Source: Anaerolineales bacterium
GTDB lineage: Bacteria; Chloroflexota; Anaerolineae; Aggregatilineales; J027
Direction of reading: 5' to 3'
Length of the DNA stretch: 64,000 nucleotides
Assembly: GCA_020634155.1 (NCBI GenBank)
Contig: JACKCI010000001.1
Location: 907,768-971,767 of the forward strand
Position 1 is the stretch's first letter. Each line of letters starts with the position of its first letter. Below are positions 43,635 through 59,599 of the stretch, piece after piece. A model generated the notes under the pieces. The model did no database searches. It was not told the DNA's origin and saw only the letters and a program-made list of their open reading frames with translations. The position numbers and the translations under genes were made by a program.

Positions 43635-44282
43635 TTGCCAACGACAAAATGCACAAACCTACGGTATACTCCCTTTATGAAAGTCTACCGTCAACTCACC
43701 TATGCACTACAACTCATCGCCTCCCTCAATGTGTTGGTGGCGCTGTTCTTGCCTTGGCATACTGAGCATGGCAACGCCCTTGAATTGATGCAACGCCCCC
43801 TTGAAGGCACTCTGCCTTATAGTCTCGTTTCGCCTTGGGTTCTGTTATGGGGTCTACCATTAATTGGTCTGGTAAGCTTGCTGCGAGGAGCTAGTGGCAT
43901 CTTTGACGCACATGCGCCGGGACGTACATGGGCGATTCGCACAAGTCTTTTAGCTGCCATTGTCATGGGTTGGTACTATCTTATCTTTGGCTCAGAAGCC
44001 GATAGCCTCAACATCATCGGTGAAATTCGCTTCGGCTATTGGCTGACGGTTAGTTCTTTGCTCCTTCTGACCTTGTTAATTTTGACTGAATGGCTGCTGC
44101 CAGAATACGACCCTCACCTTGCCCATTTGGCAAAATTGACCCATGATGACCCAGAACGCATCTGGGAAGGCCACTATCGTGTGTGTCCCTATTGTGGCAG
44201 CCCTAATGACCCTGAAAACCGTCGTTGCTCATTCTGTGGCATCACACTCTTTCATGATGAAAGGAAACCCAAACATCGATGA
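43635..44282 (+). CDS. Hypothetical polytopic membrane protein with C-terminal double-CxxC zinc ribbon
   Basis: 215 aa; 4-5 TM helices; C-terminus RVCPYCGSPNDPENRRCSFCG. Confidence 0.45.
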   Translation: MPTTKCTNLRYTPFMKVYRQLTYALQLIASLNVLVALFLPWHTEHGNALELMQRPLEGTLPYSLVSPWVLLWGLPLIGLVSLLRGASGIFDAHAPGRTWAIRTSLLAAIVMGWYYLIFGSEADSLNIIGEIRFGYWLTVSSLLLLTLLILTEWLLPEYDPHLAHLAKLTHDDPERIWEGHYRVCPYCGSPNDPENRRCSFCGITLFHDERKPKHR

Positions 44283-44527
44283 GTAATTCACCCCAACCAC
44301 CCCAACTCCTAACCGCCAAAACATTGACTAAAGCGAACCTTTTGGGTGGTGTGTTGTTTATTCTATTGATTCTCACCGCCACAGGCCTTTACTTCCTGCT
44401 TGGATTAATTGGCTGGGACGCAGGGTCAGCAGGCCGTATTCTGGTAGCACTCGTCGTGAGTCCGCTGGTGGTAGGAATCGGTTTTGCCCTTGTATGGATG
44501 TTGATGCTCAAGAAGACCAATGGATAA
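44279..44527 (+). CDS. Small two-TM membrane protein
   Basis: 82 aa; ATGA start/stop overlap with the upstream gene; two hydrophobic helices. Confidence 0.35.
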   Translation: MSNSPQPPQLLTAKTLTKANLLGGVLFILLILTATGLYFLLGLIGWDAGSAGRILVALVVSPLVVGIGFALVWMLMLKKTNG

Positions 44528-45389
44528 CGATAAACACTACCAACTCCTGAGCCAAAAACTAAGCAAACGCGGTCACCAATTTTTGCCCCTGCTACGCTGT
44601 CCGGTGACGGGTAGTTCGCTCGAAGATCATCATACTCATTTTCAAACCCCTGACGGCTCTCATATTTATCAATTTGAGGCTGGCATTCTGCGTCTATTGA
44701 CGCCCGAACAAAAACGGGCCTTTGCCGCTGAGGAACTGTCCATCTCAACCGAGAATCAAAGTAACGACTGGCAAAGCCCCACTCCTGACGATTTTCGCCA
44801 ACTACCGCAAACTGGCTTAGATGGCTGGCCGCTTGGTTACTGGCAACGACGCGCCGAGATTACCGCCGAGATGTGGCGCGTGATTGAGCATATTCGGGTT
44901 GATGAAGAACGGTTGCCAATTGGCCCAATGGGAAACGCGGTAGATTTTACAGATGACATGGGCTGGATTGCCTATGGTCTCGATATGTCCGGCTATACCA
45001 CCATTGCGGTCAGTCAAAGCATTGGTTCCTATGGATTAGGTGTCTTTGACCATTCGCGCTATCTGCGGGTACAGGCTGCCATCGATAATCCTCCCCTCAC
45101 CCCAGAACAGTTTGACCTTGTTGTCTTTAGCTTCAGCCTCAAAACACCACAACCTACACTGGACCATGCGGTGCGGTTGCTCAAAAAGGGTGGGCTATTA
45201 ATTGTGATGGCAGACAAGGGCAATGAGTCTATTCAGCAAGAGGCCGGAACCGCCCTGCAAAGCCTTGGCTTTGAGGCACGATTCCAGCGCGTGGGAGCAA
45301 TGGGTAATACCTTTAGCCGCACCCTCAAAAATCTGGTCGGCTACCGTCCCGATGTACCGCCTCTAGTGGTTGTACGTCGCCAACGCTAA
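44520..45389 (+). CDS. Hypothetical protein: Trm112-like zinc-ribbon-like N-terminus plus degenerate Rossmann methyltransferase-like domain
   Basis: 289 aa; N-terminal LLRCPVTGSSL (Trm112/DUF343-like); C-terminal DLVVFSFSL and LLKKGGLLIV resemble MTase motifs II/III, but motif I is degenerate. Confidence 0.4.
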   Translation: MDNDKHYQLLSQKLSKRGHQFLPLLRCPVTGSSLEDHHTHFQTPDGSHIYQFEAGILRLLTPEQKRAFAAEELSISTENQSNDWQSPTPDDFRQLPQTGLDGWPLGYWQRRAEITAEMWRVIEHIRVDEERLPIGPMGNAVDFTDDMGWIAYGLDMSGYTTIAVSQSIGSYGLGVFDHSRYLRVQAAIDNPPLTPEQFDLVVFSFSLKTPQPTLDHAVRLLKKGGLLIVMADKGNESIQQEAGTALQSLGFEARFQRVGAMGNTFSRTLKNLVGYRPDVPPLVVVRRQR

Positions 45390-45848
45390 AGACTCCCGCA
45401 ACACCTGTTCAAGCCGATTATGGGTCGGGAAGTCTTCGTCCATACCCACAAAACGCCAGACCACCTGTCGCTCATGGTTCAAGACATAGACACCCAAAGG
45501 CTGGGTTACTTTGGGTTTATCCGGTATACATACCAAATCATCGGTCAGGGTGCGCTGCTCATCTGCATGAAGCACAAAGGGAAGCGGCTCTAGGCTACTA
45601 ATCACAAAACTCCATACGCTGGTATGATTTTCCGGCACCACAAAAAGCGTATTCACACCCATCTTAGAATAGATTGAATGACGACGACGCATGGTGTGAA
45701 TTTGCCCCACGCAGAATGGGCACCACGTTCCACGCAGCACAATCATCATCAACCCATGCTCACCCATTTGCTGATCCAAGGTTATAGTTTGGTTTTGTGA
45801 GTCAATTACCGATAAATTTGGTAAAATATCTCCGATGTTATATCGCAT
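45363..45848 (-). CDS. Redoxin/peroxiredoxin-like thioredoxin-fold protein (AhpC/TSA family)
   Basis: 161 aa; WCPFC CxxC-type motif in the context MMIVLRGTWCPFCVGQIHTM; its 3' end overlaps the convergent upstream gene by 27 bp. Confidence 0.65.
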   Translation of the reverse strand: MRYNIGDILPNLSVIDSQNQTITLDQQMGEHGLMMIVLRGTWCPFCVGQIHTMRRRHSIYSKMGVNTLFVVPENHTSVWSFVISSLEPLPFVLHADEQRTLTDDLVCIPDKPKVTQPLGVYVLNHERQVVWRFVGMDEDFPTHNRLEQVLRESLALATYNH

Positions 45849-45906: not shown

Positions 45907-46938
45907 ATGAAAAAACTCTTTTTTATCTGTGCGCCAACTGATTACCCTTGGACTCGTAGCCTTGCCCATCAATTCTTCAGCATGGGATACCGCGTATACC
46001 TTGAACCACCCGACGAAGCTGATGACGAAAAAGTCCGTGAGCGTACCGCCCGCGCCCTATATAATGCTGAAATCATGATCGCTATTGTCTCCAAAGAAAG
46101 CGCCATTGGCAGTTCTGCTGAGGCATTTGAAGCATGGTGGCGGCCTTTTGTTGATTCGGGACGGCAGGTGATTGCTTGCATCACACCCGACTCACCCGCA
46201 GGCGCTGAAAACTGGATTCCTTACGACCTGATTCGCCGTCCACATGTGGATTTTCGGCGGGCAGGTGGAGCGGCGCGTTTAGCTGAACTGGTCAATAAAG
46301 ATGGCTCCACCACACAAGCACGCCCAGCACACACCAATCATGAGGATGATTACGAAGCCCAGTTTGAACCAGAGCCAGTCGCCGCTTATCCAACCCAACC
46401 CGTCACCCCTGTAAAAGATGAACCCGAGTCAGCATCAAAAACATCCATTATTCGTACTCTGATTGGCTTGGTGGTAGGGTTCATTATGGTATTGGTAATT
46501 TGGCAGGTGGCCCTACAGAGCGACAACGGTGATGCTCTCATTTGGGTAGGCGGATTAGCTATTATGGTGGTCGTAGTTTATTTGATTGGGCGGTGGCGTC
46601 CGCAATCTCGCAGCCAAGCAGCGAAAAAGCTGGTGGGCTATCTAGAGGTTATTTCGAGCGATGATGCCAAGACAAAAGGACGTGTTTATGGCCTCATGAA
46701 CACCTTACACATTGGCTCTGGACGGCGTGCCCAAATCCGCCTTAAGGTTGAGGGAATCGAAAAACAACACTGCACCATCTTTTATGATGGCAAAGCCTAC
46801 TACCTTGAAAACACCAGTGATAGCCGCACGATATTGTATGATCGGCAGCTAGACAGTGGTGAAGTGGTTGTATTGCAGCACGGTGATTTAATTACCGTTG
46901 GGCAAGCCGTAGTCTTGCAGTTCCGTACCCAGCTTTAG
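45907..46938 (+). CDS. TIR-like domain, 2 TM helices, C-terminal FHA domain signalling protein
   Basis: 343 aa. Residues 1-130 show the TIR_2-like pattern (KLFFICAPTDYPW...EIMIAIVSKESAIGSSAEAFEAWW). An acidic/Pro linker follows, then two TM helices (IIRTLIGLVVGFIMVLVIWQV and ALIWVGGLAIMVVVVYLIG). The C-terminus is an FHA fold (GSGRRAQIRL...HCTIFYDGKAYYLENTSDSRTILYDRQL...GDLITVGQ). Confidence 0.6.
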   Translation: MKKLFFICAPTDYPWTRSLAHQFFSMGYRVYLEPPDEADDEKVRERTARALYNAEIMIAIVSKESAIGSSAEAFEAWWRPFVDSGRQVIACITPDSPAGAENWIPYDLIRRPHVDFRRAGGAARLAELVNKDGSTTQARPAHTNHEDDYEAQFEPEPVAAYPTQPVTPVKDEPESASKTSIIRTLIGLVVGFIMVLVIWQVALQSDNGDALIWVGGLAIMVVVVYLIGRWRPQSRSQAAKKLVGYLEVISSDDAKTKGRVYGLMNTLHIGSGRRAQIRLKVEGIEKQHCTIFYDGKAYYLENTSDSRTILYDRQLDSGEVVVLQHGDLITVGQAVVLQFRTQL

Positions 46939-46955
46939 CTTGCGGCCTTCTGTTG

Positions 46956-46972
46956 AGAGGCTGTTTGAAAAG
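46956..46972 (+). repeat. IS left terminal inverted repeat (AGAGGCTGTTTGAAAAG)
   Basis: Matches the reverse complement of 47795-47811 at 16/17 positions. Confidence 0.75.
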
Positions 46973-46999
46973 TGGGGTAGGATAAGATAAAGTAAGGGC

Positions 47000-47356
47000 A
47001 TGAACGAGCGAAGAGTATACCCCAGTGATTTGACCGATCGAGAATGGGCGCTATTGGAGCCACACATTCCACCCCCCAAAGCAGGTGGAAGACCGCGCAG
47101 CAGTGACATGCGCGAGATCGTGAATGCCATTTTCTATGTGCTGAAAACGGGCTGTCAATGGCGTTGGCTACCGCATGGCTTTCCGCCAGCCGGGACGGTT
47201 TATCATTACTACAATACATGGCGCAAAGATGGAACATGGCGACGGATCAATGATGCGCTACGGGAAACATTGCGGGAGAAACTGGGTCGTGAAGCCACTC
47301 CGAGTGCGGGGAGCATTGATAGTCAGTCCATCAAAACGACCGAAAAAGGGGGGTAA
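47000..47356 (+). CDS. IS5-family transposase OrfA (N-terminal DNA-binding part)
   Basis: 118 aa; LTDREWALLEPHIPP...GRPR...REIVNAIFYVLKTGCQWRWLP, typical of IS427-group OrfA. Confidence 0.8.
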   Translation: MNERRVYPSDLTDREWALLEPHIPPPKAGGRPRSSDMREIVNAIFYVLKTGCQWRWLPHGFPPAGTVYHYYNTWRKDGTWRRINDALRETLREKLGREATPSAGSIDSQSIKTTEKGG

Positions 47357-47793
47357 GAGGCTATGATGGTGGCAAGCACATCAAAGGTCGCAAGCGCCAT
47401 TTGGTGGTCGATACGGAAGGGTTTGTGTTGCGAGCTTTCGTAACTGAGGCTAACTACCACGATGGTACTGTCGGTACGTGGCTCTTAGATGACTTGAGTA
47501 ATCGCTTTCCGCGTTTAGAAAAGTTATGGGCCGATGGCTCTTATCGTGGCACGTTTGTTGACCATGCTGCTGAACGTGGCATCACGGTTGAGATTACGAC
47601 CCGCTTGAGTGACCAACCCGGCTTTCAAGTCATTGCCCATCGTTGGGTGGTAGAACGCACCTTCGCATGGCTCAATACCTACCGTCGTCTCAGCAAAGAC
47701 TACGAGTATTGGGTCTACGCATCCGATGCCACTATCTACGCCTGTATGAGCCATCTTATGCTTCGCCGTTTGGCTCGTTTGGCTCCCACCTGA
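47350..47793 (+). CDS. IS5-family transposase OrfB (DDE catalytic part), expressed as OrfAB fusion by -1 frameshift
   Basis: The -1 frame relative to OrfA is open from about 47350 (…GVRGYDGGKHIKGRKRHLVVDTEGF…) through the DDE region (…HDGT…WADGSYRG…ERTFAWLNTYRRLSKDYE); the slippery run A5G6 lies at 47343-47353. Confidence 0.75.
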   Translation, partial: GVRGYDGGKHIKGRKRHLVVDTEGFVLRAFVTEANYHDGTVGTWLLDDLSNRFPRLEKLWADGSYRGTFVDHAAERGITVEITTRLSDQPGFQVIAHRWVVERTFAWLNTYRRLSKDYEYWVYASDATIYACMSHLMLRRLARLAPT

Positions 47794-48136
47794 CCTTTTC
47801 AAACGGCCTCTGAATATCAGGCGAGCTAGACTTAGTGGCGGGGGTAGCAGCAGTGCTATCGCCCTTGGCGCTGGTATCGGTGGTCTCGCTCTTAGCGCTG
47901 GTGTCCGTGGCATCACCGCCTTTGGTGGTGCTAGTCACACCCGCGCTGTTCTTGCCCCGGCTGTCGGTCACGTACCAACCAGACCCTTTGAACACCACGC
48001 CAGCAGGTTGAATGACTCGAAAAACCGTCCCCTCTGTCTCACACACGGCACAGGTCGTTAGGGGATCATCATTAAAACTCTGCTTGACCTCAAAGGAATT
48101 ATCACATGCACGACATTGATAGGCATAAACTGGCAT
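47756..48136 (-). CDS. FmdB-family zinc-ribbon protein with IS-altered C-terminus
   Basis: N-terminal MPVYAYQCRACDNSFEV...CAVCETEGTVFRVI zinc ribbon; low-complexity Thr/Ser/Asp tail; the last 17 codons (RPFEKVRWEPNEPNGEA) are encoded by the IS right end. Confidence 0.6.
   Translation of the reverse strand: MPVYAYQCRACDNSFEVKQSFNDDPLTTCAVCETEGTVFRVIQPAGVVFKGSGWYVTDSRGKNSAGVTSTTKGGDATDTSAKSETTDTSAKGDSTAATPATKSSSPDIQRPFEKVRWEPNEPNGEA
47795..47811 (-). repeat. IS right terminal inverted repeat (rc AGAGGCCGTTTGAAAAG)
   Basis: Reverse complement equals the left IR with one T/C mismatch. Confidence 0.75.
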
Positions 48137-48241: not shown

Positions 48242-51200
48242 TCATCCACCACCGGGGCGGAAGAAGCTCGGTTGCTCCTCAGCAGGTTGTTGACTACGGC
48301 AGATTTGCCAACTTTCACCCTGCTTAACCACATGCAGAGACGGATAGCCTGACGCGACCACTTCGCTTTGGGTTTCGGTACCGGGTTTGAAAACCATCAC
48401 CCCACCCCAATTAATTGTGCCTGAGTTACCTGCCAACTCGACGCTAATCTCTAGCTCGCGGAAATCCGCACCAAGATAGGGCTGGGCAACAAGGTTTTGG
48501 AAAGCTACAGCATCAATCGGGTAATCGGCTTGGGTTTTGTCTTCCGCACAGAATAACGCATTGTACAAATCAAAGTTGCCCGTTGTCAGAGCCTGCCAAT
48601 AGGCATAGCCTACTTCACGCACAACCCGCACATCAGTGGCATCCGTTTCAGCCGTAGACCCAATCTCGGTTCCATCATCCACATAGAGGGGGTCAGGAAT
48701 AGGGGCCAATCCACCACTAATACCCAAAGGCGGGAAAATGATAATGCGTGAGGTTTGCGGATCAGCCACATACACCTGCCCATCTTTTCCAAAAGCGATA
48801 CCACCGACAGTCTCCATACCTTGCGGGAAGCCATCCGGTGGCACCAGAGGTGTATTAAAGGACAAAACCGCCCCCCCCCGCAGGTCATAGGCCACTACTC
48901 GCGGGCCATTGTTACTTTCACTGGCATCCATATCTGATACCAATATCAATGTGCCATCTGGTGAGATAGACAGATAAGGACGATGCACAGAGTTCCGCGC
49001 ACCTGCCCACATATTGACATCCCAACTCATAACAAACGTACCATCACGGCGGAAGGCCGAGATTTTTTGATTCCACGTCTCGGCAACATAAAGCTCACCA
49101 GTAACCGGATGAATAGCCAACCCAACAGGTTCTGGCTCGGCTTGTAGGCCATTGCCTTGGGCAGTAATGTCGTATAGGTGCTGATAGTTGGCATCATAGA
49201 CACGAATGCGGTGCCCGCCTGTATCAGCTACAAAGATATTGCCTTCGTTATCAACTGCCACATCACGTGGGCCATAGAGGGACATCGGGCCACCATCATC
49301 TGGTGTACCAAAGGTGCCAAAGACCCCCACCATCTCGCCCGTCGGTGAATAGATAACAATACGGTGATTCCATGTATCCGCCACATAGATATTGCCATCA
49401 TGTGGACCAACCGCAATCCCCCAAGGTTCATTGAGGATTTCAGGGCCGCCAAAGACGTCAATGGAAGTGCCATCTGGGGCGAACTTCACAATACGATGAT
49501 TGCCCGTATCAGCAGCATAGACATAACCATCCGTATCAGATGCGAGGTCACGCGGGTTGAGTAACTCGCCGACGCCAAAAGCCGATTGAGCATTAATCTC
49601 TTGATAGACAGTATCTTCAGGATCAGGAATCAAGCGTTGGGCAACGCTCTGCCCACGCAAACCAGCATCCCAGATCTGAACGGCAAAGTCCTTCCGCACA
49701 TACATATACAACTCATCGGACACTGGCCAGCGCTCAATATTGAACTGCGGGTCATTGCGGCAACTATTGGTTATACGTTGCACACAGTTGGGGTCAAGGA
49801 CTCGTTCATCAGGGTCTGTTGAACCTTCGGGCTGGATATAGCACGCGGGCGTTTCACGCTCCACACATAGGGCCGTCGCATAAGAACCATAGTCGCGCTC
49901 CCACCAAATATCCCAAAGAGACTGTCGATAATACTTGGCTGAAGGGTTGACATCATCTGGCTCAAAGATATTGGTGATTCGGTCAGCATTGAGGTTGAAA
50001 TACTCCTGCATCGGCCACCACAAGCGAATCAGATCAAAGCGGTAGTAGTCCTTGCCGAGTATCCGCTCAATCTCCGTATTCTTGCGATTGCCCGCAATGA
50101 CGACCAACGCGCCCTCAATATTGCCTATTTGATTCTTGACATCCTCCCCAGTCCCCCACAGATAACGCTTGTCCGTGAAATCCCGCAAGTACCAGAGCAT
50201 GGGCCAACTGGAGTCATCATCATAGGCGACATGGATGTTCATGCCTTCGGGACTATGGTCAGCAAAATACATTAAGTCAGCCACCACATCCTTAACGGCG
50301 GGGCCAGCATGGGCATACACACCAAATTCGGTAGGATAGTCATAGTTAATGTAGGTAAATAGCCACGCTGCCCGCACCGTCAACATCGCCAGCAGTAAAG
50401 CAAACGCCCCTATGAACAAACGCCGCGCTTGGTCAAAACCGACATCCGCCGTTAAGCGCACACCAAAATACCCAGTGATTGCCAACGCAATAAGAGCCGA
50501 TATCCATCGCCCAGTAGCGTCAAGAGCCATCTGAGTTTGGCCTTGAAAAGGCAGATTATTACCTGTGGCATAGGGTAAGGCCAGTTGCGATAGGGCCACC
50601 AGAAACACAGGAACCACAAACAGCAGCAGTATCCACCCACTGCGTTTAAGCGCATCCCAGCGAATGCGCTCCACTACGCTCCCGATATACCAGCCACCAG
50701 CCAAGGTTAGCGGTAAGGAGAGATGGGTGGTCAACCAAGGCATTTTCTCACCAGCCATCGTCAAGGCCACTAAAATCAGAATGCCCCAGTAGCCAACTAA
50801 GGCCAAGAATGGCAAGCTACCGAGGTATTCATGATCGGTCTCGCTCATCAAGCGGTCTTGTTCAGGGTTATAGGCATAACGCGATACTCTGCCTTCACGC
50901 TGTCCCCATTCAGGCGATACCCACGCAGGACTGTCCTCACTGTCCACATTCGATTCATCTATTAGAACCTCGTCAGCTTCAATCAGAATGGGTTCATCAC
51001 CTACTACGATTTCCTCGCCCTCAGCCTGTTCACTTTGAGCAGCACGTGCTGCGGCAGCATTGAGCATAGCCTGTTGACGGCTACGGTAGCGGAAATCGAA
51101 GAAATGGGAGACTCCGGCAAAGCCCGCAAAAGCCGCCAAAATTGACGGCAAGAACTCATAGACGGGAAGTTGCACGAGTACATAATAGTATTGGGGTTGG

Positions 51201-53059
51201 CTTCCGCGCCGCACATCTTGTTGTTCGAGCCAATAGCCTAGCGACCCAATCAAGCCTGTGCCAATGCCGTTGCCATTGGTAAAAAAGGTTGTGAAAAAGA
51301 CAAGGAACAAGACGCCAAAGGCTGCCGCGGCAATCGGCCAAACTCGCCAATTCCACGCCAAACCCACCGCCGCACTCACCATCAGAAATGGAATCGCAGT
51401 GACAATCGCCGCTTGCACCGTTTCCAGCGGCAATGGTGCTTGGTCAAGGGTATAGCCTGCCCAAAATAAGGGGAAGGCCGCCAGCCAAGGAAAGACCATT
51501 GACCCCATAACAATCAATATGTCAAACGCTGGTTGGCGATTTAGCACATCCCACCAATTGGTGAGCAGCCGTGTAATCAATACACCCGTCACTGCCAGCG
51601 ATAGCACAACCCATGTGAGGAATATCGGGGCATTGTCATGTTCAAGGGTTTGGGAAACATCCTCAGCATTGGGGTCAATCGCTACAGGCCCCGTATTAGT
51701 CTCATCTGAGGGGTGGCTATGACGCTCCAAGACGAGCAAGATGCTCATAAACACAAACGCAATGACGAGCAGCGCCACAATGTCTTGCCATGTCGCCCGC
51801 TTGATAATGCCAATGAGGACAATACTAAAGACAAGGAACCCTAACGGAACAATCGTCCATTCCATAAAGATGTTCAGTTGGTTCTCAGCTAGTTTGGGTA
51901 TAAGCGCATTGGTTACCGGGTCATAAGCTTCAATGAAAATAGTGGCGGGCTTAACAATATCTAAGATGACCATACCCCATAACGCCATCACACTCCCAAC
52001 AATCGCCCCGGCAGCAACCAAGAGCATCGTTGACCGTGTGTTGTAGTAAATCGCGTTGGTGACCATGCGAACCGTGATAGGTAGCCCACCGCGCCGATTA
52101 AAAGCGATACGGATGAGGCCAAAAAACTCGACAATCGCCAACGCAATTAGCACACCATATAGTTGCAGAACGCGGTCTGGCCCTATCTCATGAGAGCCGA
52201 CATGAAAGCCTAAATCGCCAGAAATCAAACCGGAGTCTGTCTTATAGAACTCGTACCACACGCCGCCGATGGTGTATCCAAGTATCCCTACCCCAGCCAA
52301 AATAACTAGGTAGGCCAAAGGATAGAGCCACCAAGGAGGGGTCTCACGGCGTGGCGGTAACACTGCCGTAGCGTCCGCATCAACAGGCTGTCGGAAAGCT
52401 CCCCGCATAATGTCTTGTACCAAGCGCAGGAGCCAATACAGCGTCAAGAAGCTTCCGAAAATCGCCACATACATAAAGGAGACTTCTTTGGAGGCCAACA
52501 TCAACAGGAGCGCTCCGCTGAATACCGGAATCCAAATCGGGCGGCGCGGTTTCTCACCGTCTAGATATTGGAGCGTGGCATACAACATCACCATTGCAAA
52601 GAACATGGAGGGGATGTCGTGGCGAATGTAGCGGCTGTAGTACAAAATCATCGGGGAGATGAGAATGCCCACCGCTGCCAGCACCGCCCCTACCTTGCCC
52701 AACCAGCGCCGAAACAATAGGGGGAACATGACCAACGCCACCCCCAGCAACGCTGGGTAAATCCGCGCACTAAAATCGCTGGGGCCAAACAAGAAATAGA
52801 AGAATGCCGTTGCATGGAACAACAACGGCCCGTGCATCAAGGGGGTGTGGTCAAAACGCCCATATTCGTACAGTTCCCACGAATAATAGGTGTGCAAACT
52901 CTCGTCATGGCTCATCACCCGTAGGCCTAAATCCCAGAAGCGACTCAATACCGCCAAAATCAAAATGGCGGTATAGATGACAGCTTCCCAATTCAGGCTA
53001 TAGACACGGGCTAATACATGGTCGAAAGGCTGTTGACGGGTAGATGTTGTCGTTGCCAT
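48242..53059 (-). CDS. Giant integral membrane protein: N-terminal GT-C/PMT-like polytopic domain (companion family of Chlor_Arch_YYY, TIGR03663-like as I recall), 6-bladed NHL-repeat beta-propeller, then C-terminal about 150-aa domain
   Basis: 1605 aa; the N-terminal 500 aa has 12 or more TM helices with a DE-containing first loop (MSHDESLHTYYSWELYEYGRFDHTPLMHGPLLFH); more TM helices around residues 750-900; six NHL repeats ((Y/I)(V/F)AD(T)xNHRI(V/R)x(F/Y) recurring: YVYAADTGNHRIVKF, IYVADTWNHRIVIY, IFVADTGGHRIRVY, LYVAETWNQKISAF, VYVADPQTSRIIIF). Confidence 0.7.
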   Translation of the reverse strand: MATTTSTRQQPFDHVLARVYSLNWEAVIYTAILILAVLSRFWDLGLRVMSHDESLHTYYSWELYEYGRFDHTPLMHGPLLFHATAFFYFLFGPSDFSARIYPALLGVALVMFPLLFRRWLGKVGAVLAAVGILISPMILYYSRYIRHDIPSMFFAMVMLYATLQYLDGEKPRRPIWIPVFSGALLLMLASKEVSFMYVAIFGSFLTLYWLLRLVQDIMRGAFRQPVDADATAVLPPRRETPPWWLYPLAYLVILAGVGILGYTIGGVWYEFYKTDSGLISGDLGFHVGSHEIGPDRVLQLYGVLIALAIVEFFGLIRIAFNRRGGLPITVRMVTNAIYYNTRSTMLLVAAGAIVGSVMALWGMVILDIVKPATIFIEAYDPVTNALIPKLAENQLNIFMEWTIVPLGFLVFSIVLIGIIKRATWQDIVALLVIAFVFMSILLVLERHSHPSDETNTGPVAIDPNAEDVSQTLEHDNAPIFLTWVVLSLAVTGVLITRLLTNWWDVLNRQPAFDILIVMGSMVFPWLAAFPLFWAGYTLDQAPLPLETVQAAIVTAIPFLMVSAAVGLAWNWRVWPIAAAAFGVLFLVFFTTFFTNGNGIGTGLIGSLGYWLEQQDVRRGSQPQYYYVLVQLPVYEFLPSILAAFAGFAGVSHFFDFRYRSRQQAMLNAAAARAAQSEQAEGEEIVVGDEPILIEADEVLIDESNVDSEDSPAWVSPEWGQREGRVSRYAYNPEQDRLMSETDHEYLGSLPFLALVGYWGILILVALTMAGEKMPWLTTHLSLPLTLAGGWYIGSVVERIRWDALKRSGWILLLFVVPVFLVALSQLALPYATGNNLPFQGQTQMALDATGRWISALIALAITGYFGVRLTADVGFDQARRLFIGAFALLLAMLTVRAAWLFTYINYDYPTEFGVYAHAGPAVKDVVADLMYFADHSPEGMNIHVAYDDDSSWPMLWYLRDFTDKRYLWGTGEDVKNQIGNIEGALVVIAGNRKNTEIERILGKDYYRFDLIRLWWPMQEYFNLNADRITNIFEPDDVNPSAKYYRQSLWDIWWERDYGSYATALCVERETPACYIQPEGSTDPDERVLDPNCVQRITNSCRNDPQFNIERWPVSDELYMYVRKDFAVQIWDAGLRGQSVAQRLIPDPEDTVYQEINAQSAFGVGELLNPRDLASDTDGYVYAADTGNHRIVKFAPDGTSIDVFGGPEILNEPWGIAVGPHDGNIYVADTWNHRIVIYSPTGEMVGVFGTFGTPDDGGPMSLYGPRDVAVDNEGNIFVADTGGHRIRVYDANYQHLYDITAQGNGLQAEPEPVGLAIHPVTGELYVAETWNQKISAFRRDGTFVMSWDVNMWAGARNSVHRPYLSISPDGTLILVSDMDASESNNGPRVVAYDLRGGAVLSFNTPLVPPDGFPQGMETVGGIAFGKDGQVYVADPQTSRIIIFPPLGISGGLAPIPDPLYVDDGTEIGSTAETDATDVRVVREVGYAYWQALTTGNFDLYNALFCAEDKTQADYPIDAVAFQNLVAQPYLGADFRELEISVELAGNSGTINWGGVMVFKPGTETQSEVVASGYPSLHVVKQGESWQICRSQQPAEEQPSFFRPGGG

Positions 53060-53074
53060 ACATGCTCCAAAAAC

Positions 53075-53614
53075 TTAACGGTAACGCGCCTCGCGGCTGG
53101 GTTCAAGGGTAGCACCGGGCATCGGTGCTGGGCTGGCTGACCAGAGGATACTGGTAAGCTCATCGCGCTCGGTGGTTTCATTCGCCACCAACAATACGCT
53201 TTCAGCCTCTAAGGTACTATCTTGCACAACAGCGGTGCTGGTTTGCAGCGGTACATTGTGGGGCCAAGCGCCCGCCGCGTCAACCGCCGAATTGTGCAAA
53301 AAGAACGGTAACAGCACCAATAACACGGCCATGCTTCCCACCAAAATCATGGACTGAAAGTTAGTAGTAAGCAATGGGCGGCGCTTGGGGCGGGTAGCCT
53401 GTTCCAGAATCGACGGTAAAAGCGCCTTCAAACGGTCTGGGGCTGGCTCGCCAAACAGCGGCATCTCCCGCCGCAGTTCGGCCTGTGTCTGGCGAACCGC
53501 CTGATATTCACGTTGCCATGTGGCGGATTGTGCCAGATGGCGGGTAACTTTTACTCGTTGGTCAGGGGCCAATGTCCCCTCAAGATAGGCAATGAGTTGC
53601 TCCCGAATATCCAC
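53075..53614 (-). CDS. Anti-sigma factor (single-pass, small extracytoplasmic domain)
   Basis: 179 aa; N-terminal anti-sigma-like helices (MDIREQLIAYLEGTLAPDQRVKVTRHLAQSATWQREYQAV; no Zn-binding Cys/His); TM helix MILVGSMAVLLVLLPFFL; start 2 nt after the ECF sigma stop. Confidence 0.55.
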   Translation of the reverse strand: MDIREQLIAYLEGTLAPDQRVKVTRHLAQSATWQREYQAVRQTQAELRREMPLFGEPAPDRLKALLPSILEQATRPKRRPLLTTNFQSMILVGSMAVLLVLLPFFLHNSAVDAAGAWPHNVPLQTSTAVVQDSTLEAESVLLVANETTERDELTSILWSASPAPMPGATLEPSREARYR

Positions 53615-53616
53615 AG

Positions 53617-54201
53617 CTAACCAAATACCTCCTCCAACGCTAGTTTGGTTTCATCCATGACTTGTCGTAGAGATTGATGCGCCAGCCGCACCCGTGACTC
53701 GGCGGTTTTGGGTGGGATGTTAAGAATGTCCCCCATTTCTCGGTAGGTCAATCCCTGTCCATAGCGCAATGCGACAGCTTCGCGCAAGCGTGGCGAAAGC
53801 GTCTTGAGGGCTTCCCCCAACGCACGCTGGGCGTCTCGGCGGATGGTTGTCCGTTCTGGATTTTCGTCATCCGGCGCGGCAGGGTCTAGCCCATTCGCCA
53901 ATAAATCACTGAGTGCCACCATCGGCAACAGTTTGCGGCGGCGGGCATTGCGACAGCGGCTAATCGTGATGGTATATAGCCATGTACGGAATGCGCCCCG
54001 CTCTGGGTCATAGCGGGACAGGTTGCGAAACACGTACACAAAGACTTCTTGCACTACGTCTTCAGCATCTTGCTGATGCAACAACACACTATAGGCCAAA
54101 CGATAGACTTCTTTGGCATAGAGGTCATATAATGCAGTGCAGGCGCTTTGGTCGCCCATTAAACTACGCTGCAAAAGGTCAGAAAAAATTGGGTCGCTCA
54201 T
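53617..54201 (-). CDS. ECF-type RNA polymerase sigma-70 factor
   Basis: Start at internal Met (cat 54199-54201, MSDPIFSDLL), giving 194 aa; sigma-70 region 2 (YRLAYSVLLHQQDAEDVVQEVFVYVFRNLSRYDPERGAFRTWLYTI) and region 4 (LRYGQGLTYREMGDILNIPPKTAESRV). Confidence 0.8.
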   Translation of the reverse strand: MSDPIFSDLLQRSLMGDQSACTALYDLYAKEVYRLAYSVLLHQQDAEDVVQEVFVYVFRNLSRYDPERGAFRTWLYTITISRCRNARRRKLLPMVALSDLLANGLDPAAPDDENPERTTIRRDAQRALGEALKTLSPRLREAVALRYGQGLTYREMGDILNIPPKTAESRVRLAHQSLRQVMDETKLALEEVFG

Positions 54202-54226
54202 GTTAAACACTACACCCTTGCCTCGC

Positions 54227-56434
54227 CTATTGCGTAGTAACCGTCTGGACACCGTAGACATCGCTCCGAACCCACAACGTATAATGCAAATCAGGTGTTG
54301 GCTCAAAACGGGTCTGGCGGGTAAACAACCACGACCCGAAATCTGTCCAGTTCAATTCCGATAGTGACCACTGGGTATTCAATATAAAGTCCTGCCCCAC
54401 ATAATCTGCGCCCAACGCAACAGGCACTTGATCATAAGGCGTGATAACAGCAGCGGTAATGGTCTCAATACCCACACCCTCAACATAGGTTGTGTTGGGG
54501 AACTCACGCAGCAACCATGCCAACGCCCCATCGTCCGGCCCCTGCACTGTAATTGTCAGGCGGTCACGGGTGCCATTCTCAAAACGCGACATCTGCTCTA
54601 AGGTCTCAACCAGTCGGTGCGATTTTTCGAGCATCGGGGCTTGGTTCCAAAGCTCACGTGGGTCATCGCCAAAAGTATGACTCGCCTGCCACCCTAGCCC
54701 TAAGCCATAGACCATGCAATAGCCAAGTAGCCCTAGGCCCAAACCACGCCATGCGGCCCGTGTCCCCCACAGACTCCCCACTAGAAAATAGACTATCACC
54801 ATCAGCATCACCAAGAAAACCATTACCATCAGATTCAAAGGTGATTTGGCATAAGTTGAGACAAAACGGGTCAGAAGCCGAAACTCTGGAATATCAAGTT
54901 GGTAGCCGGGTAGGACATTGCCGATAATTCCGTGCTCCTCAACATCACCCGCATAAGGCAACACCATATATTGCCCGCGTTGGTCACCTGTCCCTGTAAT
55001 CTTAAGGAAATAACTACCAGCGCGGGGAAACGTGATTGGTTGCACCAAACCACGTCGCCCATCAGTATAGGTAAATGGCCCAGCGAGGAACCCATCGGGC
55101 GAATCAATCAACACAATAGGGTTAACACTGCTGTCAAGTTCTCGGATTTGAAAAACCAGCGTAGTGGGTTCGGGCACATACAACTCAAAGGTCGAAGTTG
55201 GATTGTTCAGGTCGTAGGTACCAATACGAGCGCTATTACTGAGGACAGTGGTATCTACAAAGTGGTTGTAAACCGGGCGGGTTTGGCCTTGCAGAATGCC
55301 AGAAATATTGGTGGCATTTATCGCCAAGGATGTAAGGAGTACCATCATCGTCACTGCATGGAGGGCTATCCCCCATGAGGGTACCACCCAATAGCCTGTC
55401 GATGGATTCCGCAGCATTTGAGCTGCCAGAAGCGCCGTTAAGCCCGCCGCAGGGATAACAACCCACAATGCTGCATCTGGTGTAGGATTGGCATACAAAA
55501 TGCTGACCACCAAACTCCACACGAACCAACCAACCAGCACATCTGCTAAGAAGTTGCGTTGCAGAGTGAATATCGCAATTAGCCCAAATAGTACCAGCCC
55601 AAAGTCATAGCGTAGCGCTACCCAAAAAGCATAGGCAAAGGGCGTTCCGTCAGGACGTTCAAACAGCCCTAGGAACAGCCAATAGAGGGTACTACCCGCT
55701 GACGTTAGACCCGATGGAGCCATCATAAAGCCTGTGCCGACAATTACAATCACGCCTAAAGCCGCCATCAAGCCTTCACCCCAAGGCCACTGTTTCAATA
55801 TGGCTCCAATCTTTACCGGGGGATTGGCCCGCCAGAGAGCCGTTGCTAATCCTACTATGATACCAAACAGAGTGATTGCGCCAGTAGGTTCGGTCAATAC
55901 CAAGATGACAGCGCCCGCGCAGGTGGCAGTAATGGCAAAGGCATTGCGTCCAGTCTCAGCATAGCGTCGAACAGCCCATACCATCACAAACACAATCGCC
56001 ATTGTCCACGTCACAGCCCCCATCATACGTGAGGCGGTCAACGCTACGGGGGAGATTGCCAGCAGGGTCGCCATGAGCAATGCCGATGTCTTACCCATTG
56101 ACTCACGCCATAGCAATGGCCCCAAGACCAACAGTGTTCCAACAATTGCGGTTGGGATACGGGCGTTGGTCGCACTCGGCGCAGAGATGAAAAACGTGAC
56201 TTGATTGGCAAAAGCCATCAAAGGGTTGTGTGCAACAGCCGATTCAACACCGCGCACCGATTGCAGCGCTGCTAGTGCTTCGGTCGCACTCCGTGCATCT
56301 AATGGCACATCACCCAATGAAATCACACGCATAGCAAAAGCCAATACCAATAACCCGATATAGGCTAAGGTCTCTACCCGAATACCCAGCCGAAAAGTGG
56401 GTGTTTCTTGGGCGTGTTCGTAAGCCATTTCCAT
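54227..56434 (-). CDS. Polytopic membrane protein, GT-C-like; homologous to the N-terminal domain of the 48242..53059 protein (TIGR03663-like companion family)
   Basis: 735 aa; its N-terminal 150 aa align with the giant protein (NPLMAFANQVTFFISAPSATNARIPTAIVGTLLVLGPLLWR versus HGPLLFHATAFFYFLFGPSDFSARIYPALLGVALVMFPLLFRR); about 14 TM helices; an extracytoplasmic beta-rich insert. Confidence 0.6.
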   Translation of the reverse strand: MEMAYEHAQETPTFRLGIRVETLAYIGLLVLAFAMRVISLGDVPLDARSATEALAALQSVRGVESAVAHNPLMAFANQVTFFISAPSATNARIPTAIVGTLLVLGPLLWRESMGKTSALLMATLLAISPVALTASRMMGAVTWTMAIVFVMVWAVRRYAETGRNAFAITATCAGAVILVLTEPTGAITLFGIIVGLATALWRANPPVKIGAILKQWPWGEGLMAALGVIVIVGTGFMMAPSGLTSAGSTLYWLFLGLFERPDGTPFAYAFWVALRYDFGLVLFGLIAIFTLQRNFLADVLVGWFVWSLVVSILYANPTPDAALWVVIPAAGLTALLAAQMLRNPSTGYWVVPSWGIALHAVTMMVLLTSLAINATNISGILQGQTRPVYNHFVDTTVLSNSARIGTYDLNNPTSTFELYVPEPTTLVFQIRELDSSVNPIVLIDSPDGFLAGPFTYTDGRRGLVQPITFPRAGSYFLKITGTGDQRGQYMVLPYAGDVEEHGIIGNVLPGYQLDIPEFRLLTRFVSTYAKSPLNLMVMVFLVMLMVIVYFLVGSLWGTRAAWRGLGLGLLGYCMVYGLGLGWQASHTFGDDPRELWNQAPMLEKSHRLVETLEQMSRFENGTRDRLTITVQGPDDGALAWLLREFPNTTYVEGVGIETITAAVITPYDQVPVALGADYVGQDFILNTQWSLSELNWTDFGSWLFTRQTRFEPTPDLHYTLWVRSDVYGVQTVTTQ

Positions 56435-56446
56435 GAAATTCGTCCT

Positions 56447-59400
56447 TTATTCAGGCCGGATACGATAAACAGCCACATCCCCATAATGACATACGGGGTC
56501 AAGCAGTTGGGCAAACTTACTGAGGCCGGGTGAGTCTAGACCATCGCTGCCACCATAACGCCGTATCTCGGAGACCCCCACTACGACATAATCCACCCCA
56601 TAAGGTGCGATTATTTGCTTGGCTTCGTTCCACTGATCAGCAGGCATACGATAAAACAAATCAATATCAGAAGCACGAGCATCGGCATGAATCACGGTAC
56701 TATAATCCTCACCACGCCATTGTCGCTCATGGTTATCCCAACCGAGCAAGGTCGGAATGCCTGTGTACATACTAAAACGGCCAAGTTCAGGGGTATAGGC
56801 TCCACCACTAGCCTCTACCAACACCGCATCCGATTTATACGGCTCCAAGTCAGCAAGGCACTGCATCGCCTTGAACTCATCTTCGCTAATCGGCCATGAC
56901 CGCCCAGCCCACACAAAAGTCGAGGAGCCATCGAGTGTAATGGGTGCCTCTTCACGGCACAACTCCCCTTCGCAAGCTCGCGCTTGGGGACGGCTCATCT
57001 CATACAGGAAGCGGCTAGGGATTGCATAGTAGGGATAGAGCAAAACACTAAACAAAACGATGGCCGCCAGTCCACCATAGGCGACATAGCCTACCCGCCA
57101 CTGGCGAGATGGTGGGGACACTTCACTATGGAGACGTTCAGGGCCACGCAATACCGCATAAACTGCATAGGCGGCGCTAATTGATAGCAATGACCACGCT
57201 TGATAATAGAGCTTGAACACGGTATTAATGCGGCTACTGAAGTTATCTCGCAAGTACATGAAATCTGGCATCAGGACGGCTAAGACGCCTGCCCCTATCA
57301 AAAGTAAAGCTGCACCTGTATTGGGGCTAAAGCCAACTGCTGAATCCTGCTGACGCCCCCCACGTGTAAACAGGCGCATCGCCACCACACCTGCCAATAA
57401 AAGCAATATCGCTTCGCTTCCAATAGCCGTCGTGCGCCGCATAATCACACGCCGCGCCATCGCTACCGACGATTCACCATCTAGCACGCCACCTAATAGC
57501 GATGATCGTGCAGTACAAGCCCATTCTGAGAAGCTATCGACCTGCCCCGGCTTCTCACCAAGGGCGGGGCATTGCCAGTTAATAAACACAGTAGAGATTG
57601 TTGGCACCAAGAACATCATCAATAAGCCAATCAGCACAATGCTAATGACCCCTGTCCAGTTGAGTCGGTGCCGTACTCGCCACGCTTGCCCCAGCACAAA
57701 AGGTGCAATCAAAAGGATAAAAGCGCCGAATTGCAGAAAAGCCTGCTGAGTACGGGTAGGATGAATGATATTGGGGAAAAAGCCATTGGCTTGGCTGGCA
57801 AAACTCTCTAACCATAAGAAGTAAAAGCCGTAGAACGTCAGGAAGAGGACAGCACCAAAGCGCCCAACGTGGCTCCAGTCAGTATCGTCCAAGAGCCAAT
57901 TGACCAACAACGTTGCGGGTATCGACACAAACAGCGCCAACACCATTTGCAACACAAAACGCACCAACGGCACAGTATCAAGGCCAGCAGGCAGGTTATT
58001 CGTCAAACTGAGGTCAATCCCACGCTGGCTCAGGAAAAACAAGACCACAATATATACAGGGCCGATTAGCCAGCGATTGAGGTCAGACCGCCGCCGCAAG
58101 GTGAGTGTATCAACAAACTCAGCCCATCCTGTCAGGCTACCTGTGCCGTTACGAGATAAGCGTCGCACTGCCTCTGCTGCAACCACCACCAACAGATATA
58201 CGGCATCCCACGCATTGGCAAAAATCATGCCACCGATAAAGATGCCATAGATAATCATCTCCCAATACTGGAGAGGTGTGGGGCGTAAGACCAATGCCAC
58301 GGCCAAGCCAATCACCAATACGGTGAAGGGTAAGCCAAGGACATGTGGGTGATTGTCCGACAGGATAAAACTAAACTGAGGGATTTCAGCAATTGGTTTC
58401 GGTTCAAAATGATTGCCAGACAGATCACGGTCACGCACAAGACGACTATGGGCGAACCACCACCAGTAATCCCAACCCAGTGGTTGGGGGTCATCATCCC
58501 AACTCGGAATTCCATCGTTATCCGGATCAGGCAAGGCTTGGTAATTTTCCATTAGGGGGCTATTAGGGTCAAGCCGTACAACCTCGTCGCTTTTATAAAT
58601 ATCCAGATTGCGCGTACCGTCAGCATTACGTCCCCCATCGGTATAAAAAGGGCCAGCCCGTCCATGCACATCCCAGAAGTTAAAATAATCGTCGCTGACA
58701 ATCTGATTCACAATTGGGATATTGGAGGTATAGCCACGAAATGGCAACTCAACTAATACTGTCCCCAGATGCCCACCCAGCGCCAAGAAAACCGCCGCTA
58801 ATAAGCCAATCCCTAGGCCAACTTCAATACCCCCTGTGCGCCAGCGTTGCAATGGGCCGGCAGAGCAAACAAGGTTATAGCCGACCCCGAAGGCCGTGGT
58901 CATCGTTAAGGCAAAAAGCAAAGCATCAATCAAATTGAAGGCCATACCAGTGGTGACATTGCTTAAGTCAGCCAAGCCTGCTGCCAACACATATCCAAAG
59001 TAGTAGTAACTGATGGCGTAACCCGAAAGCCAAGGGTCTTTAGGAGGAAAGGTCAACGAATTGCGAATGCCATTGATGAAGGCCATCTCCATTGGCTTCT
59101 CGGTGGAGGTCAATTCGGGATTATGAGCTTGCATATAAGCCCAAGCCACAAACGTCACGGCAAACAACAATTCCGTGACGATAATCAATGGGGACTGCTC
59201 AATCAGCCACTGGCGTAATTCCTTGAATGTTGGACGTTGCGACCAGCGTACCCAAACCCATAGGCTTGCAATCAGCACTAAGAACCACGCAAAGGCCATC
59301 GCGCCGGGGTCGTTTTGTAGCAAGCCAATACTGGCTAGGAGCCAGAAGACCGCCCCCACAAGCAGCAGCCCTGCCGCCCGTGCCATCGCATAGCCGCGAT

Positions 59401-59599
59401 CCGCCAAACCGGACAGCAACCGGAATAGCAGAGGCAACACAGCCCAACCAGCCATTGTGGTAAGCAACCACCATGAAAACACATAGCGGCCCTCGTTAGT
59501 CAACCACTCTCGCGCCAATTCAAGTGGAGAGAGTGAGAATATCGCCCCCCCAAAGCCGATTATCGGCACGACCCAAAGCAAACTTAACCATCGTCGCAT
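56447..59599 (-). CDS. Chlor_Arch_YYY (DUF2298) family integral membrane protein
   Basis: 1050 aa; hallmark YYYxGY motif in context KPMEMAFINGIRNSLTFPPKDPWLSGYAISYYYFGYVL; more than 20 TM helices; C-terminal extracytoplasmic domain of about 200 aa shared with the upstream paralog. Confidence 0.75.
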   Translation of the reverse strand: MRRWLSLLWVVPIIGFGGAIFSLSPLELAREWLTNEGRYVFSWWLLTTMAGWAVLPLLFRLLSGLADRGYAMARAAGLLLVGAVFWLLASIGLLQNDPGAMAFAWFLVLIASLWVWVRWSQRPTFKELRQWLIEQSPLIIVTELLFAVTFVAWAYMQAHNPELTSTEKPMEMAFINGIRNSLTFPPKDPWLSGYAISYYYFGYVLAAGLADLSNVTTGMAFNLIDALLFALTMTTAFGVGYNLVCSAGPLQRWRTGGIEVGLGIGLLAAVFLALGGHLGTVLVELPFRGYTSNIPIVNQIVSDDYFNFWDVHGRAGPFYTDGGRNADGTRNLDIYKSDEVVRLDPNSPLMENYQALPDPDNDGIPSWDDDPQPLGWDYWWWFAHSRLVRDRDLSGNHFEPKPIAEIPQFSFILSDNHPHVLGLPFTVLVIGLAVALVLRPTPLQYWEMIIYGIFIGGMIFANAWDAVYLLVVVAAEAVRRLSRNGTGSLTGWAEFVDTLTLRRRSDLNRWLIGPVYIVVLFFLSQRGIDLSLTNNLPAGLDTVPLVRFVLQMVLALFVSIPATLLVNWLLDDTDWSHVGRFGAVLFLTFYGFYFLWLESFASQANGFFPNIIHPTRTQQAFLQFGAFILLIAPFVLGQAWRVRHRLNWTGVISIVLIGLLMMFLVPTISTVFINWQCPALGEKPGQVDSFSEWACTARSSLLGGVLDGESSVAMARRVIMRRTTAIGSEAILLLLAGVVAMRLFTRGGRQQDSAVGFSPNTGAALLLIGAGVLAVLMPDFMYLRDNFSSRINTVFKLYYQAWSLLSISAAYAVYAVLRGPERLHSEVSPPSRQWRVGYVAYGGLAAIVLFSVLLYPYYAIPSRFLYEMSRPQARACEGELCREEAPITLDGSSTFVWAGRSWPISEDEFKAMQCLADLEPYKSDAVLVEASGGAYTPELGRFSMYTGIPTLLGWDNHERQWRGEDYSTVIHADARASDIDLFYRMPADQWNEAKQIIAPYGVDYVVVGVSEIRRYGGSDGLDSPGLSKFAQLLDPVCHYGDVAVYRIRPE

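Follow-up and report, generated by a model that had tools for sequence, protein, structure and literature searches.

What does a bacterial protein do that joins a TIR domain to an FHA domain across a pair of transmembrane (TM) helices? The question is raised by a gene at positions 45907..46938 (+) of the window, the 64,000-nucleotide stretch of Anaerolineales DNA analyzed here. Its 343-aa product (MCB9436186.1) comes from a 2.18-Mb contig of an Anaerolineales metagenome-assembled genome (MAG) and is titled "FHA domain-containing protein" at NCBI. Pfam places both domains above threshold, only marginally so for TIR_2 (PF13676; 28.6 bits for the whole protein against a threshold of 28.0, and 30.8 bits for the isolated N-terminus) and by a wide margin for FHA (PF00498; residues 268-332; 43.6 bits, cut-off 20.7). 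Together with two TM segments in the hydropathy profile, this shows that the ORF is real and has the composition, TIR, two TM helices, and FHA, that the original prediction had assigned to it. Yop-YscD_cpl is a secondary Pfam match, NCBIfam yielded a weak TagH-type FHA match and nothing more, and PADLOC returned zero matches for the protein. We put at about even chances the explanation that it is a non-enzymatic, membrane-tethered adaptor with cytoplasmic TIR and FHA domains, tied to genes of the cell envelope.

The protein belongs to a small family with a narrow taxonomic distribution. A word-indexed search of 5.8 billion proteins returned 11 relatives, every one with TIR_2 and FHA, and when 1.84 billion representatives were searched exhaustively with a profile, ~20 full-length clusters at 50% identity came up, followed by some TM+FHA fragments and then by generic FHA proteins only. 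Nine species-level GTDB genomes carry the gene, all of them Chloroflexota/Anaerolineae MAGs, and all family members that are named or assigned to a genome fall in Chloroflexota/Anaerolineae. The only other TIR_2 and FHA combinations found were a short sister group, P0031/P0032, and P0094. The sister proteins (307-312 aa) have the same TIR-2TM-FHA order, with E or D at the canonical catalytic position of the TIR domain and a degenerate FHA domain; they share the TM hairpin and a P..aP...W(M/I)P motif with the family, but differ in gene context. On short contigs (L015, 147-1952), the sister gene lies downstream of a gene for a 282-aa protein with faint squalene-hopene-cyclase-like matches. P0094, encoded on a 4.2-kb Logan contig, is a soluble TIR_2-FHA-wHTH protein of 450 aa (Trans_reg_C-like) that contains no TM segment. 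Its TIR domain has the canonical Glu, and its FHA domain is canonical throughout (GR, SxxH, STNGT). P0094 is a singleton, with no close relatives among the 5.8 billion proteins, and could be a transcription factor or effector in which a TIR domain is under phospho-regulation. In the literature searched, the combination of TIR, FHA, and TM segments is undescribed, the two domains being mentioned only generically as alternative effector domains in conflict systems. As it also has no characterized counterpart, its description in the original prediction as unusual and unrecognized stands. The TIR-FHA fusion is a new architecture made from known domains, within one Anaerolineales lineage.

The TIR-FHA gene is clearly functional, as it is under strong purifying selection, with an overall dN/dS of 0.05-0.10 against its relatives. 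In comparisons with a 93%-identical and a 74%-identical relative, respectively, dN/dS amounts to 0.00 and 0.07 in the TIR domain, 0.02 and 0.08 in the TM region, and 0.07 and 0.10 in the FHA domain, and it is 0.23 in the linker between TIR and membrane. The TIR domain is the most constrained part of the protein: Against the 93%-identical relative, it shows zero non-synonymous changes in 130 codons at a dS of 0.56. Conservation is highest in two stretches of this domain, FEAWWRP (residues 74-80) and P94..P97.G99...W103-M-P105.D107-L108.

The region between the two domains consists of a linker and a membrane anchor. The linker (residues 131-180; 46297..46446, +) is acidic, Pro/Thr-rich, and disordered (pLDDT <50), and gaps in the alignment show that it varies in both length and sequence across the family. 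It is followed by a TM hairpin (46459..46590, +), which hydropathy resolves into TM1 (185-203), the loop QSDNGD, and TM2 (210-228). Two TM segments are found in this way in all 24 family members analyzed as well as in the window protein. The two-TM tether and the acidic linker (net charge -6) of the original prediction are thus both present. Since basic residues flank the hairpin on its TIR and FHA sides, both domains should be cytoplasmic. The outer loop, acidic in the window protein, measures 6-12 residues in the family, which leaves no space for a sensor domain.

The gene occupies a fixed position in a conserved block. Three conserved plus-strand genes lie upstream of it, coding for a polytopic membrane protein of 215 aa that ends in a zinc ribbon (43635..44282), an 82-aa two-TM protein (44279..44527; 4-bp overlap with the preceding gene), and a class I SAM methyltransferase with a Trm112-like N-terminus (44520..45389; 8-bp overlap). 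Between the methyltransferase and TIR-FHA genes, the window carries a clade-specific AhpC/TSA-redoxin gene on the opposite strand (45363..45848, -). We considered this gene a recent insertion and rejected the idea, as it is common to several divergent members (L012, L013, L014, L020, and L021). The 3' ends of the methyltransferase (+) and redoxin (-) genes overlap by 27 bp (45363-45389), and they do so likewise in L020 and L021. In clades that lack the redoxin gene, the methyltransferase gene overlaps the TIR-FHA start by 4 bp, and the 4-8 bp overlaps of the four plus-strand genes indicate an operon there.

All loci examined have the same order: histidine kinase, GlgP (-), Zn-ribbon membrane protein, ~90-aa membrane protein, methyltransferase, AhpC/redoxin (-) in some clades, TIR-FHA, FmdB-type Zn-ribbon (-), a giant PMT/NHL glycosyltransferase (-), anti-sigma factor, ECF sigma factor, a second PMT-like protein, and DUF2298. 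This block of ~20 kb is identical in order in the nine GTDB species genomes, and also where TIR-FHA identity has fallen to 36%, 33%, and 27%. Such fixed synteny down to 27% identity argues for vertical inheritance and against a defense island. Of ten neighbors, just two had PADLOC matches, which were weak, looked sub-threshold, and concerned generic domains, and no sensor, effector, or ThsA-like partner is found near the TIR-FHA gene. The anti-phage setting that the original prediction had raised therefore finds no counterpart in the protein or in its surroundings: The hallmarks of Thoeris, CBASS/Pycsar TIR effectors, SPARTA, and TIR-retrons are absent, with neither a model match nor a partner or island.

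The downstream part of the block, a conserved envelope block at 48242-59599 (-), is syntenic in nine Anaerolineae species genomes. This glycosylation locus encodes a PMT-type (GT-C) glycosyltransferase of 1605 aa fused to NHL repeats, an ECF sigma/anti-sigma pair (sigma factor, 53617-54306, -; zf-HC2 anti-sigma factor, 53075-53614, -), a second PMT_2-like protein of 735 aa (54227-56434, -), and a DUF2298 homologue of 1050 aa (56447-59599, -).

More distant homologues of the methyltransferase are accompanied by a small membrane protein while TIR-FHA is missing, which marks TIR-FHA as a lineage-specific addition to the block and weakens the notion, which we had entertained, of methyltransferase and TIR-FHA as an obligate pair. 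In more distant Anaerolineae (L017, 8142-13061; L018, 12037-14480; L019, 8116-10657), a second methyltransferase gene stands beside the homologue. In these same loci, tandem arrays of four to eight ~195-aa GNAT acetyltransferase paralogues follow, either directly or past an ABC-transporter cluster; the arrays are an unusual paralogue expansion.

The FHA-fold domain comprises residues ~243-343 (46633..46935, +). In addition to its Pfam score, Foldseek matched its 11-stranded β-sandwich to DgcB, FhaA, and OdhI with a probability of 1.0 and target-normalized TM-scores of up to 0.89, and the C-terminal FHA fold that the original prediction had proposed is confirmed. The phosphothreonine (pThr) loops, however, are degenerate. 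In Rad53, roles in pThr-peptide contact have been described for Arg70, Ser85, Asn86, and Thr106 (PMC2615620). To find the corresponding positions in the family, we aligned it by HMMER with FhaA and with the canonical FHA domain of P0094. The Gly of the GR pair (residue 270) is invariant (24/24) and the His of SxxH (residue 288) is kept in 17/24 members, while the Arg of the GR pair (residue 271) is retained in 13/24 and replaced by Ser in the window protein. The phosphate-contacting Ser of SxxH (residue 285) remains in just 2/24; the site holds Glu in seven members, among them the window protein, Asp in seven, and Ala in six. The Asn of the NG motif (residue 306) is found in 0/24, and the β6-β7 loop equals that of canonical FHA domains minus one residue. 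The family as a whole does not carry the residues of a pThr-binding FHA domain (GR, SxxH, Asn), and the acidic side chain at the phosphate-contacting Ser site in particular argues against canonical pThr binding. Judged from these losses, the FHA domain probably does not bind pThr.

These substitutions bear directly on the alternative that survives best, though it is itself unlikely, namely a canonical phospho-signaling adaptor. In this scenario, a distant Hanks kinase would phosphorylate a Thr, either in a partner or in the Thr-rich linker of the protein itself, and the FHA domain would bind the resulting pThr, in the manner of FhaA, FipA, GarA, and DgcB; the TIR domain would serve as output or interaction domain. 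It draws on an FHA Pfam score well over threshold, on best compact structural matches that are themselves pThr-binding bacterial FHA domains (DgcB, FhaA, and OdhI), on the retention of the Gly, the His, and about half of the Arg residues, and on a linker rich in Thr and Ser. Yet the phosphate-contacting Ser has given way to Glu or Asp in 14 of 24 members, the Asn is lost from all, the β6-β7 loop is shortened, the window protein lacks the GR Arg, and the linker, being unconserved, offers no conserved Thr docking site. The original prediction, which had introduced FHA as a readout of Ser/Thr-kinase signaling, had correctly seen no adjacent kinase or phosphatase gene: Neither a Hanks-kinase nor a PP2C motif occurs in a real ORF of the 64 kb or in the syntenic loci. 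Kinases that act on bacterial FHA proteins are often encoded elsewhere in the genome, which counts for phospho-signaling; the residue losses count against the readout itself. Some phospho-dependent binding may nevertheless persist, given the Arg at the GR pair in about half of the members and R273/R274 nearby in the window protein.

The TIR-fold domain (residues 1-130; 45907..46296, +) is predicted to comprise βA (3-7), αA (10-25), βB (29-32), αB (41-53), βC (56-61), αC (71-83), βD (87-92), βE (113-115), and αE (121-130), that is, a flavodoxin-like α/β fold of five parallel strands βA-βE alternating with helices. In HMMER, it is homologous to two strongly canonical TIR_2 proteins, P0087 (E 1e-18) and P0094, which score 107-108 bits; with the Pfam match, this establishes the N-terminal TIR fold that the original prediction had suggested. 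As Foldseek with the full-length model returned FHA matches only, the TIR fold was compared by means of a separate TIR-only model, which came equally close to MyD88 and to SARM1, B. cereus TIR, and ThsB. A search with the TIR alignment profile against PDB sequences returned only the N-terminal half of MyD88 and designed Rossmann-like proteins, matches that do not cover αC. The two most conserved stretches lie in αC (F74-E75-A-W77-W78-R79-P80; 46126..46146, +) and between βD and βE (P94..P97.G99...W103-M/I-P105.D107-L108; 46186..46230, +). The latter is common to the short TIR-2TM-FHA sister group and missing from the canonical TIR_2 relatives.

The central question for this domain is which residue occupies the catalytic position, since the prokaryotic TIR NADases tested all depend on a Glu equivalent to E642 of SARM1 (PMC7282519). 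We checked the human SARM1 TIR domain (residues 563-699) against the PDB, in which E642 is the Glu of the segment WVHKEI, the WxxxE position within the first turns of αC. From αC to βD, MAFFT and HMMER align the family, P0087, P0094, the sister protein P0032, and SARM1 without gaps. The family segment W77-W78-R-P-F81...G85-R86-x-V88-I89 is matched to E-W-Q-Y-F...R-K-x-V-I in P0087 and to E642-I-V-T-A...G-K-x-I-V in SARM1, so that E642, the Glu of P0087 (EDE|W), and that of P0032 (IQE|L) all fall on the column of W77 (46135-46137). The HMMER posterior is ~0.8 at this column and maximal just downstream. The hydrophobic stripe of the helix runs in the same register (F74, W78, and residue 82 against SARM1 V639, I643, and L647). 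The βC-αC interval of the family, however, is three residues longer, which counts against the assignment, and the equivalence of W77 and E642 rests on sequence alignment and helix logic and not on 3-D superposition. Across the 24 members, the W77 column holds Trp in 23 and Ile in one. The original prediction had proposed to look for conservation of the catalytic Glu of TIR NADases; at the canonical position, it is a Trp that is conserved, and the TIR domain is probably not an NADase.

E75 had been our own candidate for the catalytic Glu, on account of its spacing from a Ser in βC and its near-invariance (E in 22 and D in two members). We abandoned it, as the alignments to SARM1, P0087, P0094, and P0032 place W77 at that position. 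E75 sits two residues before W77, ~200 degrees round the αC helix. P0087 and P0094 also carry a Glu at -2, alongside their catalytic Glu, so that the conservation of E75 is ancestral and needs no catalytic explanation. A comparison of the family profile with the single SARM1 sequence by hhalign (2% probability) gave an unreliable, different register that is likewise Glu-less, and was not used.

The same data limit an active membrane-tethered TIR NAD(P)ase, which comes next among the alternatives and is likewise unlikely. Such an enzyme would use E75 as a non-canonical catalytic residue, be activated by FHA- or membrane-mediated clustering of its TIR domains, and serve defense, stress suicide, or the synthesis of a signal nucleotide. 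TIR NADases require oligomerization (PMC7282519), which we count in its favor, along with the likeness of the fold to SARM1, B. cereus TIR, and ThsB, the acidic residue at position 75 in all 24 members, the extreme purifying selection on the TIR domain, and the D or E that P0031/P0032 keep at the canonical position, by which catalysis may predate the TIR-2TM-FHA architecture. Against it stand the near-uniform Trp at that position, the orientation of E75 and the coexistence of a -2 Glu with the canonical Glu in relatives, the lack of PADLOC matches for the protein and of meaningful ones for its neighbors, the missing sensor, effector, or ThsA-like partner, and a syntenic position that is fixed in all genomes, unlike that of mobile defense genes.

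Less probable again is a ligand-sensing pseudo-enzyme, in which a site formed by W77, W78, and W103 would bind NAD+, a nucleotide, or an aromatic metabolite without cleaving it and signal to membrane partners. The extreme conservation of FEAWWRP and the WMP motif, both at what was once the catalytic pocket, and the complete absence of amino acid changes in the TIR domain against its closest relative would agree with such a site, as would the redoxin gene that is an immediate divergent neighbor in part of the family. The proposal is purely inferential, however, and the conserved aromatic residues could equally form a protein-protein interface or belong to the core.

An IS directly downstream of the gene calls for one further consideration. 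This IS4/IS5-family element of 878 bp (46945..47822, +) has 28-nt imperfect inverted repeats (82% complementary), no clear target-site duplication, and a pair of transposase ORFs that do not share a frame (DUF4096, 47000-47356; DDE, 47401-47793), an arrangement that suggests programmed frameshifting of the transposase. The adjacency noted in the original prediction is correct, in that the IS begins 7 bp past the TIR-FHA stop codon, but it carries no meaning for the gene: The IS sits precisely where the TIR-FHA and Zn_ribbon_8 genes converge. L020 and L021, the relatives at 93% and 74% identity, lack it, and there these two genes run into each other with a 4-bp overlap. Its absence from the closest relatives marks it as a recent insertion that is not part of the system. 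We had also considered that the IS brought the gene or created the fusion, which is contradicted by the same gene in close relatives without the IS. The IS has altered nothing but the tail of the FmdB-type Zn_ribbon_8 gene (47756..48136, -), a conserved convergent neighbor whose last ~22 codons now lie within the IS, so that the C-terminal tail of its product has been replaced; the ORF has 126 aa here and 98-115 aa in relatives. A chance or decaying ORF, or a mis-fusion made by the nearby IS, is refuted and practically out of the question, since the full-length architecture is kept in the ~20 clusters, selection is strong, and IS-free relatives have the same C-terminus.

We therefore return to the non-enzymatic adaptor and to how it might work. 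The two-helix hairpin would do nothing beyond anchoring the protein in the cytoplasmic membrane. Because its core is kept with a Trp in place of the essential Glu, we infer that the TIR domain acts in assembly or binding; the FEAWWRP and P..P.G...WMP.DL motifs would supply the surface, as in animal adaptor TIRs. The flexible linker would give it reach to partners. In the FHA domain, too, the core is kept while the phosphate-contacting Ser and the Asn are lost and the Ser site is usually acidic, which points to phosphorylation-independent binding of a partner near the membrane. Likely partners, or members of the same pathway, would be the polytopic Zn-ribbon membrane protein, the small two-TM protein, and the Trm112-like SAM methyltransferase, and the GT-C/PMT-type glycosyltransferases and the ECF sigma/anti-sigma pair of the block point to a function in the cell envelope. 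As the redoxin gene stands between TIR-FHA and the methyltransferase operon in the clade of the window, and as methyltransferases without TIR-FHA exist, synteny can only suggest that TIR-FHA is coupled to these neighbors. Two features speak against a mere adaptor. The near-perfect conservation of the TIR domain goes beyond the demands on a scaffold and could also reflect catalysis or the binding of a ligand, and the near-invariant E75 could in principle be part of a shifted active site.

Among known systems, the closest to such an adaptor are the animal adaptor TIRs (MyD88, MAL/TIRAP, and TRIF) and the Glu-less plant "sensor" TIRs (RRS1). The family differs from them in being bacterial, tethered by two TM helices, and fused to FHA, in its Trp at the catalytic position and its WMP motif, and in lacking a death domain as well as any receptor or NLR partner. 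ThsB of Thoeris, AbTir, B. cereus TIR, TIR-STING, TIR-SAVED, the TIR-APAZ of SPARTA, and SARM1 share the TIR_2-type family and fold; compared with these NADases, the family has Trp for the catalytic Glu, no PADLOC match, and a non-defense locus with a fixed, vertically inherited position. P0094, which has the canonical Glu, a canonical FHA, and no TM helices, and the sister group, with its E/D and other gene context, are set apart from the family as well. On the FHA side, FhaA/Rv0020c and FipA/FhaB/Rv0019c, which belong to the control of the actinobacterial cell envelope, and the YscD/PrgH-type domains of T3SS have the same C-terminal or membrane-proximal cytoplasmic FHA fold in an envelope setting. 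The family FHA matches FhaA among its best hits in both sequence and structure, and YscD through the secondary Pfam match. FhaA and FipA retain the Arg/Ser/Asn pThr triad and lie in kinase/phosphatase operons, neither of which applies to the family. YscD-type domains are FHA folds without the pThr-binding residues, and the family FHA is alike in this respect. None of the YscD, PrgH, FhaA, and FipA proteins contains a TIR domain, however, and no secretion-system genes lie near TIR-FHA.

A TIR domain in a bacterium is now taken almost by default for an immune effector that cleaves NAD+, and an FHA domain for a reader of phosphothreonine. This conserved and strongly selected family runs cleanly counter to both habits, as its two sets of hallmark residues are gone and its locus is a stable envelope locus, and it calls for caution with function calls made from domain names. 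More tentatively, and with clearly less confidence than in the adaptor as such, we suggest that it could be the first vertically inherited housekeeping TIR pseudo-enzyme of bacteria, a membrane-anchored analogue of MyD88 that organizes an envelope complex or senses NAD-related ligands without cleaving them. Its former NADase pocket would be plugged by a Trp and its FHA domain blind to phosphorylation, and the complex would consist of membrane proteins and the methyltransferase. If so, adaptor-type, non-catalytic TIR signaling would have arisen independently in bacteria outside immunity. The reach of this proposal is limited to one lineage, represented by uncultured genomes only, and to a family whose function is predicted. 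For that lineage, the family provides a candidate for a non-enzymatic function of bacterial TIR domains and an uncharacterized piece of the poorly understood Anaerolineae envelope.
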